Below, in pieces: positions 2,561 to 25,196 of a stretch of DNA of 49,132 bases (position 1 is its first letter; each line of letters starts with the position of its first letter). Origin of the DNA: Candidatus Aenigmatarchaeota archaeon (GTDB lineage: Archaea > Aenigmatarchaeota > Aenigmatarchaeia > CG10238-14 > SCSR01); contig JACOWB010000011.1 in the NCBI GenBank assembly GCA_016177025.1, positions 1 to 49,132 on the forward strand, given 5' to 3'. The notes below the pieces were generated by a model. The model was not told the DNA's origin. It was given only the letters and a program-made list of their open reading frames with translations, and made no database searches. Made by a program: the position numbers and the translations under genes.

Positions 2561-2649
2561 GCCCCAGTAGCTCAGTCAGTAGAGCGTTTACATTATATGG
2601 CGCAAGCATGGTAAGCAAAAGGTCTCGAGTGCAATTCTCGACTGGGGCT
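2561..2649 (+). tRNA. tRNA-Thr(GGT) with 16-nt non-canonical intron at 29/30 (2590-2605)
   Basis: Acceptor GCCCCAG/CTGGGGC; removing the intron restores stem TTTGC/GCAAA around ATGGTAA; BHB helix GCGT/GCGC, inner CAT/ATG helix. Confidence 0.88.
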
Positions 2650-8092: not shown

Positions 8093-9814
8093 TTATTGTT
8101 TTATGACTAGTGCTTTCTTCTTGACAGCGATCCTAACTTCCGATTCCAACCTGCCCAATGGTCTGTCCTCCAAATTAATGAATTTCATATGCGCTGCAAC
8201 TGTGGGATGGACTTTCTGGACGGCGTAGAACATATCCTGCACTAGCTTTCTATAATCCGGATGTCCGCCAGGAGTTGTTCTCAATTCGCATAAATGAAAC
8301 AGCTGTCTTGCATTCAGTCGGTAATACCATCGTGTGTTAAATCCAAAAGTCACGACATACTGCGCTTGAAACGGAAGAATGGGATGCAGTTTATTGAACA
8401 AATCTATCACCTGCCGCATCTTGTTTTCATAGTCATCGGATATACCTATTTCCTTGAACTCCTTTCTTGTATTGTAACCGAGGTTTACTGTGAAATTCTG
8501 CCTCTCCTGCGTGCATACCCTATGCCTTTGTATATCACGGAATATCCCGACTCTTGCATTGAGATCAAAGAGATATTCCACGCTTTCAAACGCTCTTCCA
8601 GGTTTGTGCCTGCGATTGACCCTATTGCCGACATATGCAGCGATAATTTTCTTTCTCTCCTCTCGGGGCATGAGGATAGCTTTTTCTATAAGCTGGCTCA
8701 TCGAATGACCGTGGCCGAATTTGTAAAGTATGCTGGCAGTCAAAATGACCTGAGTCGTATCATCGGGATTCTCCGCGCCTTTTCCTGTATATCCGACTAG
8801 TCTAAATTGTTCCGTTGAATCATTCGTCTCCACACCAGCCAATACCTGATTTACTAGATTGAAGGTGTCTTCAGTTCTTCCTTTGAAAAATTCTTGATAT
8901 GCCATGCCATGTTTGTCTGGGACTCGTTTAATTAGCGAAGGAACAAGCTTGTTCAATTCTGCATAAATATTCTGACCAATCCATTTGGATTCAGCCAATG
9001 GCGACGATAATAATTTTAATACAAGGTTTTCATAAGAGCGTGCGTTCATGTTTATGCCGACATGAGTCAATGTTGCCATCGGAAGATAGTCCCTTATCAA
9101 ATCCAGTGCGTTCGCTTTCACAGAGTTGTCATATGCTTTCTTTAAATCAGTTTCTGTTATCCCGTATTTTTCTTCTATTTCTGGCGTCAACTCGGAAACT
9201 TTTACTATCGCATCGCCAATCCTGAAAGTTTGCGACTCGAAAGGATTCAAATCTGATATATATTTTAACATCATTTCCATGTGCGTGGTATATGATGCGA
9301 GCAGACTTCTCATCAGGTTCAAGTACTCATCAGCATACCGCGAATTGAGTATATCAGGATCCTTGTAGAACATGAATTCTCCATTAGGAAGAGTCTTGTC
9401 GAAGAAAACATATCGTGTGGATTTTTCGATATACGAACCTATCCGAGATTCTTCTATTTCCTTTACAGCCAAATTTGATACGAACTCGCATGAAACAGGC
9501 AATCCACCAGACATTTCCTGAATAGAATCATCACCATAGTCAACAAGCCATGCTTCGAAAAATTCCCTTCCCCTGTCTTTGTTCGGCAGGAATTCCTTGA
9601 GGAAAAGTTTCTTTCCTGTAAAAATTGTCCTACTGTATCTCGATAGCAATGCTCCAATTTGTTCCGGTGTCAGTATATCGCCAATTTTCCACGCAAAGAT
9701 ATTGCTGTCGGTATTCGATACAACATTCGATAGAGTCTGAACTTCTTCGTCGGTGAATTCTTCTACAGGAATTCCTTGGTCGTTCTCCCAGAATTTAAGC
9801 AATGTTTCAGGCAC
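8093..9814 (-). CDS. thyX: FAD-dependent thymidylate synthase, long tandem-domain form
   Basis: YIEKSTRYV in the N domain; FRDIQRHR, HLCELRTTPGGHPDYR in the C domain; GTG start. Confidence 0.92.
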   Translation of the reverse strand: MPETLLKFWENDQGIPVEEFTDEEVQTLSNVVSNTDSNIFAWKIGDILTPEQIGALLSRYSRTIFTGKKLFLKEFLPNKDRGREFFEAWLVDYGDDSIQEMSGGLPVSCEFVSNLAVKEIEESRIGSYIEKSTRYVFFDKTLPNGEFMFYKDPDILNSRYADEYLNLMRSLLASYTTHMEMMLKYISDLNPFESQTFRIGDAIVKVSELTPEIEEKYGITETDLKKAYDNSVKANALDLIRDYLPMATLTHVGINMNARSYENLVLKLLSSPLAESKWIGQNIYAELNKLVPSLIKRVPDKHGMAYQEFFKGRTEDTFNLVNQVLAGVETNDSTEQFRLVGYTGKGAENPDDTTQVILTASILYKFGHGHSMSQLIEKAILMPREERKKIIAAYVGNRVNRRHKPGRAFESVEYLFDLNARVGIFRDIQRHRVCTQERQNFTVNLGYNTRKEFKEIGISDDYENKMRQVIDLFNKLHPILPFQAQYVVTFGFNTRWYYRLNARQLFHLCELRTTPGGHPDYRKLVQDMFYAVQKVHPTVAAHMKFINLEDRPLGRLESEVRIAVKKKALVIKQ

Positions 9815-9854: not shown

Positions 9855-11129
9855 TTACAATTGTTCTAATTCGTGAAGAAGTCTAACAAATCCTTTTTCT
9901 CTTATCAATTCTGAAACATTCTGTGTACTATTAGAACCTACAGCTAAACAAATGGAATCGTGATCAGATGCTAAAAAGTCAATTCGTTGTTTCAACTCCG
10001 GATTTACTTCAAACAAGTCCCTTTTCCCGTTTGGATAAGATACCGCTACATTATCGGCACTTTTCTTTACTCTTTCTCCAGAAGTTGTGAAGAGAATGAC
10101 ATCTGCAGAATCGACTTTCGTTAATTCCGCTACTTTTCTTTCTGTTTTATCTCTATCAGCTAGTGAACTAACAGATTGAACCAGTTTATCATATTCTTGA
10201 TCATCTACAAGTTCTTCATTACGTACAGAAAATTTTCTTACAGCACGTTTTATTCGTGCTACCATCCACAAGTGTGGTTGGTTAAAATTATCACTAAAAA
10301 CGGTCTTGTATACACTTTGTGTTATTGGGTTTGCAGAATGTCTAACGGTGTTCATAGCTTCTATGTCATCCCAATTCCACATCTCATACGGATCTATCCC
10401 ATCCGTCTTGATAGCATTGTATAATGCCTTCAACATAGCTGTGGCAATAAGTGTAGGGGCTTCATCTAGATACACTGCCATATAGTTAAACGCATATGAA
10501 TTTACAACAGCTTCCGCTTGTCCTAATCCCTGATATAATACGCCATAACTTTCTCCATCAAACCACAAGTAAGGTAATACTCCAGTAGTATCTGTTTGAG
10601 GCATACCCACATGATGTCTATCCCTTGCAATATAATCCAGTCTATCCGCACTCAAAGCATGATGAGAGACTATTTGATGATAAGGATGCGAACCATCTAA
10701 CATACTTCGAACTTTTGCATAGTCAACAATATTTTCCAACAAAGGTTTAAGTCTTTCTAACTTTTCTAATGTCATGCTTTCATGACTTTTCCCAGTCAGT
10801 TCTTGTAAAAGGGTTTCCCCAGTATGGGACCAAAATGGGTGACCCAAATCATGCAATACGCCAGCGAGCTTTAGAGCATTTACGTCTTCTCTACTGAAGC
10901 GTAACCATTCACCTATCTTTCCTGCTAAATAACCTGCACCTAGACTATGCTCCAATCTAGTAACATTGGCACCCGGTCTAACCGGATAAACGAAACTCAT
11001 TTGTCTTAATTCAGCAAGTCGCCTCAATTCTCCTTGCCCCAGAAGGACTGTTGCGTCCCCAAGAATTTCCGGTATAGCGGCATTCCCATAAGGGTGAGGT
11101 ACCCAAATCGTCGAGTTTGCCGAATACAT
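9855..11129 (-). CDS. HD-domain phosphohydrolase (SAMHD1/dNTP triphosphohydrolase-like)
   Basis: LRRLAELRQM, TRLEHSLG, LHDLGHPFWSH, SADRLDYIARD; likely start ATG 11129. Confidence 0.85.
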   Translation of the reverse strand: MYSANSTIWVPHPYGNAAIPEILGDATVLLGQGELRRLAELRQMSFVYPVRPGANVTRLEHSLGAGYLAGKIGEWLRFSREDVNALKLAGVLHDLGHPFWSHTGETLLQELTGKSHESMTLEKLERLKPLLENIVDYAKVRSMLDGSHPYHQIVSHHALSADRLDYIARDRHHVGMPQTDTTGVLPYLWFDGESYGVLYQGLGQAEAVVNSYAFNYMAVYLDEAPTLIATAMLKALYNAIKTDGIDPYEMWNWDDIEAMNTVRHSANPITQSVYKTVFSDNFNQPHLWMVARIKRAVRKFSVRNEELVDDQEYDKLVQSVSSLADRDKTERKVAELTKVDSADVILFTTSGERVKKSADNVAVSYPNGKRDLFEVNPELKQRIDFLASDHDSICLAVGSNSTQNVSELIREKGFVRLLHELEQL

Positions 11130-11196
11130 AAAATTGAACTGAAAAATAACATTTAAATACCGGCATTTAATTAGAATTATTGGAGGTGTGATGATA

Positions 11197-11337
11197 ATGG
11201 CATTAGCTGTCAAATCTGCTGTTCGTGGTCAGTTGAAGGGGATGCGAGCAGGCGGAGATTTCTTCAAAGAACTGGACAACAAAATTGCTTGTTTATCTTC
11301 AACTTTTCATTTTAAAATTAGGTCGGTCAAAGGATGA
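11197..11337 (+). CDS. Small histone-fold protein (alpha3-less / face-to-face type), C-terminus apparently replaced
   Basis: GGAGGTG RBS; MALAVKSAVRGQLKGMRAGGDFFKELDNKIA fits alpha1-loop-alpha2; the tail CLSSTFHFKIRSVKG lacks RAKxxxRKT. Not in the ORF track. Confidence 0.7.
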   Translation: MALAVKSAVRGQLKGMRAGGDFFKELDNKIACLSSTFHFKIRSVKG

Positions 11338-11576
11338 GTCAGTCTAGTGATAGCAATCAGCAGCAAGCTTACAGATTACGTGCAGTCTTAATACAAAACT
11401 CAACTAAAAGCCCTAGTAGTTCCAGAAGATTCGTTTCCGAGGACGCATCTCGTCATTTAGCTCGCCAAATCTATGGTGACAATTGTGTAGAAATTGGTTG
11501 GGCATTTAATTTTCTTCGTTCCCAAAGGTATGCTAGAGAAGTGGTAAGAAATGGCGTACGAGGATATCTTGTCTAA
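11334..11576 (+). CDS. Hypothetical protein (ORFan, possibly winged-helix-like)
   Basis: 80-aa ORF whose ATG overlaps the histone-ORF TGA; stop overlaps the DUF1512 stop. Confidence 0.5.
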   Translation: MSQSSDSNQQQAYRLRAVLIQNSTKSPSSSRRFVSEDASRHLARQIYGDNCVEIGWAFNFLRSQRYAREVVRNGVRGYLV

Positions 11577-12748
11577 AAACCAAACCATCTTTTCCCCTGT
11601 TTCTCCTGCTCTGCCCTTCCTTTCATCATCTTTGATATCTCTTTCGCTTTCTTTTCCGCGACTTCGGTAGATTTCTTGTCATTCCCGACGCCGCTAGTGT
11701 TCCCAACGCCTAAAAGAATGATAGTCCCTCTTTTCTTGGTGTTCTTGATATTCTGCTCGACAATGCTCACAGCCCTCGGCACAGCCTTCAAAACATCCAA
11801 AGGCATGTTCATTATCGCTTCCTCAGGCGCCATCTTGATCGCAACAGACTCTATAGGAACTTTCTTCTCTGTCGCGACGTTTTCAATAAATGCACGATAG
11901 AAGCTCCCCATTGCAACTCCAATGCCTTCCGCAACTGATCCTGTCCTTTCCCCTTCCAATTTCCCTGCAGCGTCAACAGAAATTATCTTCGCCACCTTAC
12001 CACGCCTGACTTCCTTTTCTACAACTTCCCACGGCTTTCCCAATCTTCCGCCCGGGCCTTTCGCCTTTATTATAACAACACTCCTTCCCTTGATCTTCTT
12101 CCTTGCAACAATCGTGTCCCTGATATCTTTTCCTCGCGAGTCGCCGATCATATGCGATGCGACCATCGGTCCGATTGAGTCGCCCATCGGCCATCCGTTG
12201 GCCATGGTTTCAGTCCCGTTGAGCATGGCTTTGGCCACCTTTTCAATAAACGGCATCTGCATCTGAAGAATCATCGCCAGTTGCAAACTCTTCGTTTTTT
12301 TTATAGTTTCAACAAAATGCCGCACTATTTTTGCGATTTGATTCATGCTAATGGCGCCCGACAATCCGCCAACAAGGCTCGCTTGATCTTCGGGATTCAT
12401 CTTAGGAGCCACTTCCTTGCTGAAGTCCTTGAACTTGTCTTCCACGAGCTCGACAAGATGGTTCAATTTATTCAATATCCCGTAAGGATCAAGATTTACA
12501 GGCTCGATTGCAAAAAACTCCATAAAGTTTCCGACCTTCTCTCTCAGTTCATGCGATGGTTTGTTAGATATCCTTCTGAGCACTATCTGCTTGGTTTTGT
12601 GGGTATAACCTTCAAGCATCAGCGCAGTGCCTTCAAGCTTCCCCAACATCTGCATGAGCATTAGGCGAGGATAGAAGAACATCATCACTACAAAAAATCC
12701 TATCCAGATTGCAGTCCCGATGAAGCTTGTATCCCCGAATAAAGGCAT
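11573..12748 (-). CDS. DUF1512-family archaeal membrane protein
   Basis: N-terminal TM, IEPVNLDPYGI, GWPMGDSIGP, VDAAGKLEGERTGSVAEGIGVAMG, GVGNTSGV. Confidence 0.8.
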   Translation of the reverse strand: MPLFGDTSFIGTAIWIGFFVVMMFFYPRLMLMQMLGKLEGTALMLEGYTHKTKQIVLRRISNKPSHELREKVGNFMEFFAIEPVNLDPYGILNKLNHLVELVEDKFKDFSKEVAPKMNPEDQASLVGGLSGAISMNQIAKIVRHFVETIKKTKSLQLAMILQMQMPFIEKVAKAMLNGTETMANGWPMGDSIGPMVASHMIGDSRGKDIRDTIVARKKIKGRSVVIIKAKGPGGRLGKPWEVVEKEVRRGKVAKIISVDAAGKLEGERTGSVAEGIGVAMGSFYRAFIENVATEKKVPIESVAIKMAPEEAIMNMPLDVLKAVPRAVSIVEQNIKNTKKRGTIILLGVGNTSGVGNDKKSTEVAEKKAKEISKMMKGRAEQEKQGKRWFGF

Positions 12749-12802: not shown

Positions 12803-13015
12803 CTAAAGCAACATTATCTTCTTATTCAAGCTGTACAGGGCGAGCTTGACGCCTGAGACAATCGACCATCCTATCCGACTTATCTCACCGTAACGCTTCA
12901 GCTTCATTATACTGATGGCTACAGATGTCCTGCTCTTGCCTGTGTGCTTGGTGAAGTCTTTGATGGTACCATTGCCAGTTTTTTTCAAATAGTTCAGTAT
13001 CTCTGCCTGCGACAT
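12803..13015 (-). CDS. Small winged-helix DNA-binding protein
   Basis: EILNYLKK.G..TIKDFTKHTGKSRTSV..SIMKL.RYGEI HTH pattern. Confidence 0.65.
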   Translation of the reverse strand: MSQAEILNYLKKTGNGTIKDFTKHTGKSRTSVAISIMKLKRYGEISRIGWSIVSGVKLALYSLNKKIMLL

Positions 13016-19518: not shown

Positions 19519-19635
19519 GGGCCCATAGCTCAGCATGGCAGAGCACCTGGCTTTTAACTATATGTTAAAAAGCATATTGATCCAAGATGATAGGAAGGAA
19601 CCAGTGGGTCGAGGGTTCAAATCCCTCTGGGCTCA
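19519..19635 (+). tRNA. tRNA-Lys(TTT) with 43-nt intron at 37/38 (19557-19599)
   Basis: Acceptor GGGCCCA/TGGGCTC; BHB helix CTTT/GAAG, outer helix CTAT/ATAG; T arm GAGGG-TTCAAAT-CCCTC. Confidence 0.9.
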
Positions 19636-25114: not shown

Positions 25115-25196
25115 CTTCGTCTAGCCCGGTCAATTAAAGCCGTTAGGACGTGACCTTCTCGAGGTCGAAACCTGGGTTCAAATCCCAGAGGGAGCA
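25114..25196 (+). pseudogene. tRNA-Glu(CTC) lacking nt 1-4, with 12-nt D-loop intron (25133-25144)
   Basis: 3' acceptor strand AGGGAGC-A; only positions 5-7 (CCT) pair; anticodon arm TGACC-TTCTCGA-GGTCG; BHB helix CGGT/GCCG. Confidence 0.8.

Follow-up and report, generated by a model that had tools for sequence, protein, structure and literature searches.

A face-to-face histone gene, probably truncated by a short internal deletion, in an Aenigmatarchaeota-like archaeon

Face-to-face (FtF) histones constitute the α3-truncated histone family, in which α3 has only 3–4 residues and α2 is shortened, and their defining quaternary structure is a toroidal homotetramer (Schwab et al. 2024, PMC11390915). 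The residues that define them are an RxTxxxxD motif, structuring loop L2 and contacting DNA, and an arginine and an asparagine of the tetramer. The dimer–dimer contact involves R45 of HTkC, equivalent to R41 of D4GZE0, and N45 of D4GZE0; a conserved, solvent-exposed lysine of α1 is K11 in D4GZE0 (PMC11390915). Substitution R45A turns the HTkC tetramer into a dimer (bioRxiv 10.64898/2025.12.06.692711). The described proteins closest to the gene reported here are HTkC (TK1040) of Thermococcus kodakarensis (PDB 9F2C) and HVO_0196 (D4GZE0) of Haloferax volcanii. Cells of T. kodakarensis survive the deletion of htkC; their stationary-phase density falls by about 27% and htkA expression doubles. The histones HBb of Bdellovibrio (8FVX, 8CMP, 9EZZ) and HLp of Leptospira (9QT0-2) are bacterial and differ in oligomeric behaviour, and many carry N-terminal tails. 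DUF1931 (PF09123) is another histone-fold family; its members form a separate category without DNA-binding residues (Schwab et al.).

We analysed a stretch of 49,132 bp, called the window throughout; it is C22, one of the 23 contigs that make up a 571-kb assembly with 86% completeness. It contains a 46-aa open reading frame whose first 31 residues are those of an FtF histone and whose last 15 are not. Probably, an internal deletion of about 97 bp has truncated what is the single-copy FtF histone gene of this Aenigmatarchaeota-like DPANN archaeon. The best-matching protein relative with a name likewise points to the DPANN lineage Aenigmatarchaeota. The order histone, DUF1512 gene, small wHTH gene is found again on six contigs of relatives (L022, L023, L005, L009, L016, L021), where DUF1512 is the syntenic neighbour of the histone. 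The DUF1512 gene of the window is 78% identical to that of L022 in nucleotides and 87.5% in amino acids. The features of the locus are collected in Table 1.

Table 1 Features of the truncated histone locus and its surroundings, in window coordinates.
Feature	Position	Strand	Remarks
thyX	8093-9814	minus	
HD-domain gene	about 9855-11129	minus	
TATA-box-like TTTAAATA, putative histone promoter element	11152..11159	+	inferred; inside block AAAATAACATTTAAAT, conserved with L022
Shine-Dalgarno-like GGAGGTG	11182..11188	+	8 nt 5′ of ATG; TTATTGGAGGTGT same in L022
Truncated histone ORF (46 aa)	11188/11197..11337	+	start codon at 11197, TGA at 11335-11337
Retained codons 1-31	11197..11289	+	α1, loop L1, first 12 residues of α2
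New tail CLSSTFHFKIRSVKG, 15 codons and TGA	11290..11337	+	former 3′ untranslated/terminator sequence
Deletion junction (candidate)	11291..11292	+	about 97 bp of the relatives absent between these bases (alignments A1, A2)
Native histone 3′ flank, remnant	11292..11338	+	T-tracts persist, both T5 runs interrupted; then conserved AGGT..CGGTC motif
80-codon ORFan	11334-11576	+	between histone and DUF1512 gene
DUF1512 gene, convergent	11573-12748	minus	Pfam PF07431 1.7e-37, PF23542 8.4e-49
70-aa wHTH-like gene	12803-13015	minus	

Searching 5.8 billion protein clusters with the 46-aa product, we retrieved 39 relatives, nearly all of exactly 54 aa; the product itself is a singleton cluster in that collection. 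Its residues 1–31 are 74–100% identical to the 54-aa proteins, and every match ends at residue 31–33. A family profile, made from 35 relatives and the stub of the window (alignment A3, 36 rows), finds HTkC (9F2C) as its best profile match with an E-value of 1.5e-8, followed more weakly by HLp (9QT0) and HBb (8FVX, 8CMP) at 1.8e-4 to 1e-2. The AF2 model of a 54-aa relative (pLDDT 91.8) has helices at residues 6–12, 20–43 and 51–53. Submitted to Foldseek, it retrieves 9F2C_A first (TM 0.88/0.83) and then HLp and HBb, which have the same monomer fold (TM 0.86–0.92); such monomer models do not discriminate between FtF and bacterial-dimer α3 histones, and the sequence match to the bacterial proteins is weaker than that to HTkC.

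The residues R40, N44, R46, K47, T48 and D53 are nearly invariant among the 35 relatives. By residue correspondence, R40 and N44 are the tetramerisation arginine and asparagine, while R46, T48 and D53 make up the RxTxxxxD motif of FtF histones (PMC11390915; bioRxiv 10.64898/2025.12.06.692711). Similarity in fold and profile to HTkC is common to the intact 54-aa orthologues. They share with the HTkC type a three-residue α3, a short α2, RxTxxxxD, the asparagine two residues before it, the tetramerisation arginine and the α1 lysine; with 54 aa they are slightly shorter than HTkC, which has 59 aa in the PDB entry. Judged by profile, residue pattern and predicted fold, the 54-aa family of the relatives is a face-to-face (α3-truncated) histone. 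NCBI labels one 54-aa relative, P0020, as a 'DUF1931 domain-containing protein'. PF09123 (gathering score 21.8 bits) matches neither the stub nor the intact protein P0002 at E ≤ 10; its only match in the same genome is below threshold and falls on a canonical histone (E 0.05). PF00808 (CBFD_NFYB_HMF), the model of nucleosomal archaeal histones, whose α3 has 10 residues, has no match to the stub or to P0002 either.

Compared with the HTkC type, the copy in the window keeps α1, L1 and the first half of α2, with helix limits taken from the AF2 model of the 54-aa relative (H6–12, H20–43). It also keeps the α1 lysine, K6 of VKS, which does not vary within the family. The second half of α2, L2, α3 and the C-terminal signature residues are absent, and 15 unrelated residues stand in their place. 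The α1-L1-α2-L2-α3 arrangement with a short α3, seen in the model of the 54-aa relative, is thus not found in the product of the window: R40 and N44 are deleted, and an unrelated tail occupies the place of RxTxxxxD. It is through its first 31 residues that the stub belongs to a gene family resembling a solved FtF histone. An earlier note on this DNA had likened these residues to small histones of the HTkC/face-to-face type, which the profile and Foldseek matches to 9F2C bear out. It had also reported the C-terminal half (the end of α2 and the RKT loop) as missing, and indeed no frame in the window supplies it.

As intact loci for comparison we used the Logan contigs L022 and L042, the JGI contig L023, and G003. 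In these relatives ATT GCT TG is continued by G AAA GTC ... GAT TTA TAA, and the stop codon is followed by a conserved hairpin, GGGTCTTATGACCC, then by AAGC and T-tracts (TTTTTATTTTTAAC.TTTCATTATTT). The window jumps from ATTGCTTG directly to TTTATCTTCAACTTTTCATTTTAAAATTAGGTCGGTC. The missing stretch corresponds to L022 172–268: it begins with the last base of the Trp32 codon, takes in the rest of the reading frame up to codon 54 and its stop, and goes on over the hairpin to AAGCTT. With it the C-terminal half of α2, R40 (equivalent to HTkC R45, the arginine of the tetramer salt bridge), N44, RxTxxxxD (R46, T48, D53) and the short α3 are lost. Beyond the junction, window 11292–11338 aligns with the flank of the relatives beginning 26–27 nt past their stop codon; with 2000 shuffles in each case, none attained the Smith-Waterman score of 16 for L022 and a single one did for L005/G003. 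Since the sequence after the junction is homologous to the native 3′ flank, the event is, on these alignments, an internal deletion of about 97 bp rather than an insertion.

The deletion starts behind the second base of codon 32 and ends 27 nt beyond the stop codon, in the T-rich sequence of the terminator. As 97 is not a multiple of three, the frame shifts, and translation reads 15 codons of former 3′ untranslated sequence until it meets a TGA; this TGA overlaps the ORFan ATG by chance. The 46-aa protein reads MALAVKSAVRGQLKGMRAGGDFFKELDNKIA and then CLSSTFHFKIRSVKG. In the alignment this tail replaces WKVKRAIERAK(A/S)N(G/D)RKT.RACDL of the relatives, a segment (WKVKRAIERAK.N.RKT.RACDL) that occurs in no frame of the window and on no contig of the assembly. 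The AT-richness observed earlier after the junction is real: the GC fraction is 0.295 (11290–11333) against 0.405 for the genome, with a codon-usage score of −0.225, and it would follow from the tail being translated terminator sequence. Hairpin-plus-T terminator sites are present in L022, L023 and L042; none is found in the window at 11292–11338, which the deletion would explain. The relatives do not share the new tail, and the suspicion of a disruption, as opposed to a natural variant, is upheld.

The earlier note had proposed that foreign DNA was inserted or swapped in close to position 11290. [quoted passage not shown] CTTGT is indeed present at both places (11288–11292 and 11568–11572), the ORFan has no relatives, and the interior of the segment (11339–11570) is not alignable with L022 or L042. 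Against this, native 3′ flank of the histone gene fills the 47 bases that follow the left end, the displaced C-terminal codons expected downstream are found nowhere in the genome, and the same slot holds other, unrelated ORFs in the relatives. As a target-site duplication CTTGT fails as well: its left copy consists of the native Ala31/Trp32 codons (GCT TG.), and relatives with intact histones, L022 among them, have CTTG at the same two places. The repeat as such stands, its placement at the segment ends is coincidental, and the insertion is hardly credible.

We return to the deletion and to its breakpoints. GCTT recurs as a direct repeat near both of them and was considered as the mechanism; it was rejected, as the junction keeps an extra G and leaves no exact match. 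In the relatives the left breakpoint lies at the edge of an inverted repeat within the histone gene, GCTTG-GAAAGT-CAAGC (L022 167–182), and the equivalent site is lost in the window. The palindrome AAGCTT holds the right breakpoint. Secondary structure may have promoted the deletion, although the junction is not exactly explained by it.

The retained half is well preserved. Window 11132–11287 is 86.7% identical to L042, and codons 1–31 have 100% amino-acid identity to P0002 and L022. Relative to L022 there are seven synonymous and no non-synonymous differences; the changes specific to the window's lineage, at codons 15 and 26, are both synonymous. This lack of amino-acid decay fits a deletion that is recent, or an allele that is not fixed, 31 codons having little power. 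With the same little power, an intact promoter, Shine-Dalgarno sequence and N-terminal half would also be expected from ongoing selection on the stub.

The slot between the histone and the DUF1512 gene varies among relatives. Intact histones are accompanied by an 89/111-aa ORF in L022, by a 90-aa ORF in L042 and by others in G002 and G007, all unrelated; in L023 and G006 the slot has just 50–90 nt, again beside an intact histone. We detected no homology between the slot ORFs of different relatives, and none of them, including that of the window, matches Pfam or PHROGs. Because the slot is variable and relatives with intact histones carry unrelated ORFs or none, the ORFan, judged from this comparison, was not the cause of the truncation. 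One conserved motif, AGGT..CGGTC..A/TTG, marks the start of the slot ORF in the window, L022 and L042 (GGATGAG in the window, GGTTGAT in L022, TCGATGG in L042), and homology reaches to about 11338. The stop codon of the slot ORF overlaps that of the convergent DUF1512 gene in both the window and L022. Across the loci compared, the slot thus appears either empty or filled by mutually unrelated ORFs of 70–111 aa (window 11334–11576, L022 242–577, L042 620–892, L016 1056–1358, L009 1155–1367).

The coding status of the ORFan is uncertain on sequence grounds. No homologue was found in the 5.8 billion protein clusters (word-indexed search), in 118 genomes of the order (six-frame), in the DNA of 40 relatives, in JGI metagenome contigs (back-translated patterns), or in Pfam, NCBIfam and PHROGs. 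When 1.84 billion representatives were scanned exhaustively with HMMER, two matches came out; both fall on repeats in large unrelated proteins, a MIF4G and a Calx-beta protein. A weak tblastn match (E 0.16) to contig C7, at the N-terminus of a membrane protein that we take to be a pyrophosphatase, was put down to chance. The codon-usage score of the ORFan is −0.06, compared with 0.26 ± 0.09 for real genes and −0.74 ± 0.42 for off-frames: all 300 segments sampled from real genes score higher, 97% of the off-frame segments score lower, and the other five frames do worse. Shuffled sequence yields a frame that stays open this long in 3% of cases, and the AF2 model made from the single sequence reaches a pLDDT of 56.9.

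The histone TGA overlaps the ORFan ATG (11334–11336) in an ATGA at 11334–11337, as had been noticed before, and this overlap could be taken as a sign of function. The stub would then be a microprotein made from a strong histone promoter and coupled through ATGA to the ORFan, its partner or the capturer of its promoter. Promoter, Shine-Dalgarno sequence and start codon are intact, the 31 codons carry no non-synonymous change, and the loss of the terminator would place the ORFan on the same transcript; the rarity in shuffles of a frame as long as the ORFan's and its leading codon score among the six frames point the same way. However, the 46-aa form is conserved nowhere: its cluster, one of 5.8 billion, has no other member, and none of the other copies in the 62 gene-bearing genomes of the family is truncated. 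The idea of a truncated variant with a coupled partner thus finds no backing in the relatives. Its tail is translated terminator with a poor codon score, and the residues for the L2 DNA contact, the dimer–dimer contact and the centre of the α2 crossing are all gone. The ORFan, for its part, has no homologue, a codon usage below that of every real-gene segment and a low model confidence, and its product is absent from the protein collection, where the stub is present. Altogether, we regard a functional variant as quite unlikely. A combined scenario, in which a real and fixed deletion yielded a half-histone microprotein with a terminator-born tail and brought a young or de novo ORFan under the histone promoter by ATGA coupling, seems very unlikely to us; if true, it would show promoter capture and gene birth in progress at a chromatin locus, the lineage having given up an otherwise universal FtF histone. 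With the deletion as the preferred explanation, the ATGA overlap would be a by-product of the new frame.

We searched 70 genomes of the family in six frames with the family profile. A full-length FtF histone was found in 62 of them, including all 20 high-quality genomes (at least 90% complete), and it is nearly always single-copy. The matches in other genomes span the model from positions 1–5 to 53–54 (of 54) with no stops, apart from one chance-level partial match (E 0.007). The genome studied here (G000) is the only truncated case. Neither the missing C-terminal half nor an intact paralog, for which a search of the genome had been suggested, turned up in the assembly: searches with the stub, the family profile, the C-terminal 23 aa (tblastn) and the deleted 97 bp (blastn) gave only chance-level matches. 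An intact FtF copy could sit in the missing part of the assembly, which is 86% complete. Two canonical PF00808 histones are kept, at C1:73873-74055 (L001 1474–1680; E 5e-14) and C23:5720-5902; most relatives also have two canonical histones of the nucleosomal type.

With the FtF gene kept in every high-quality genome of the family, its true loss is somewhat surprising. An assembly or consensus artefact, or a minority allele, would account for that, the real genome or most of the population then carrying the intact 54-codon gene. The truncated form is known from one contig only, and its junction pattern is absent from JGI metagenome contigs. The lack of decay in the retained half, promoter and Shine-Dalgarno sequence, the state of the metagenome-assembled genome (23 contigs, 86% complete) and a further deletion-like junction at about 25.1 kb of the same window are on the same side. 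On the other hand, only the 4-nt GCTT recurs near the breakpoints and nothing repeats at the junction, which leaves a k-mer graph assembler no repeat to collapse. No other contig of the assembly overlaps the histone region, and a clean loss of 97 bp is atypical of sequencing error. We therefore rate an artefact as unlikely.

From the established histone-fold architecture and the work on HTkC, we infer that the 46-aa product would form neither the handshake dimer nor the toroidal tetramer, which would make the gene a null allele. The stub has kept its promoter and Shine-Dalgarno sequence but not its terminator, so its transcription probably continues and extends into the ORFan and on in the direction of the 3′ end of the convergent DUF1512 gene. 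Losing the FtF histone should be tolerable, given the viable htkC deletion of T. kodakarensis and the continued presence of the two canonical nucleosomal histones.

The kind of event is ordinary. Deletion pseudogenes in reduced DPANN genomes likewise show a single out-of-frame internal deletion with read-through into the flank, in a genome of about 0.6 Mb; in contrast to these, the gene hit here is one that every high-quality genome of the family keeps. The case is only mildly notable, in that the lost gene is otherwise universal in the family. Should the deletion prove real and fixed, there would be an Aenigmatarchaeota-like lineage that does without an FtF histone and relies on two canonical histones. 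It would parallel in nature the htkC deletion made in the laboratory in Thermococcus and add a little evidence on whether FtF histones are dispensable in DPANN archaea; otherwise, this is an ordinary pseudogene or a variant of this metagenome-assembled genome. The annotation should be corrected, with the 46-aa ORF labelled a truncated FtF histone and the ORFan no longer taken for its partner.

Finally, we note some tRNA features on the same contig. Rfam calls two tRNAs, at window 2561–2649 (89 nt) and 19519–19635 (117 nt), and ARAGORN calls neither; both probably contain introns. A further tRNA-like sequence at window 25117–25196 has a T-arm, CTGGGTTCAAATCCCAG, and a 3′ acceptor, AGGGAGCA, with no call from ARAGORN and none from Rfam at the gathering score. 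Its 5′ acceptor strand is apparently absent, which would make it a second deletion-like junction on this contig. Alternatively, it could be a split or permuted tRNA; such tRNAs are known from Nanoarchaeota.
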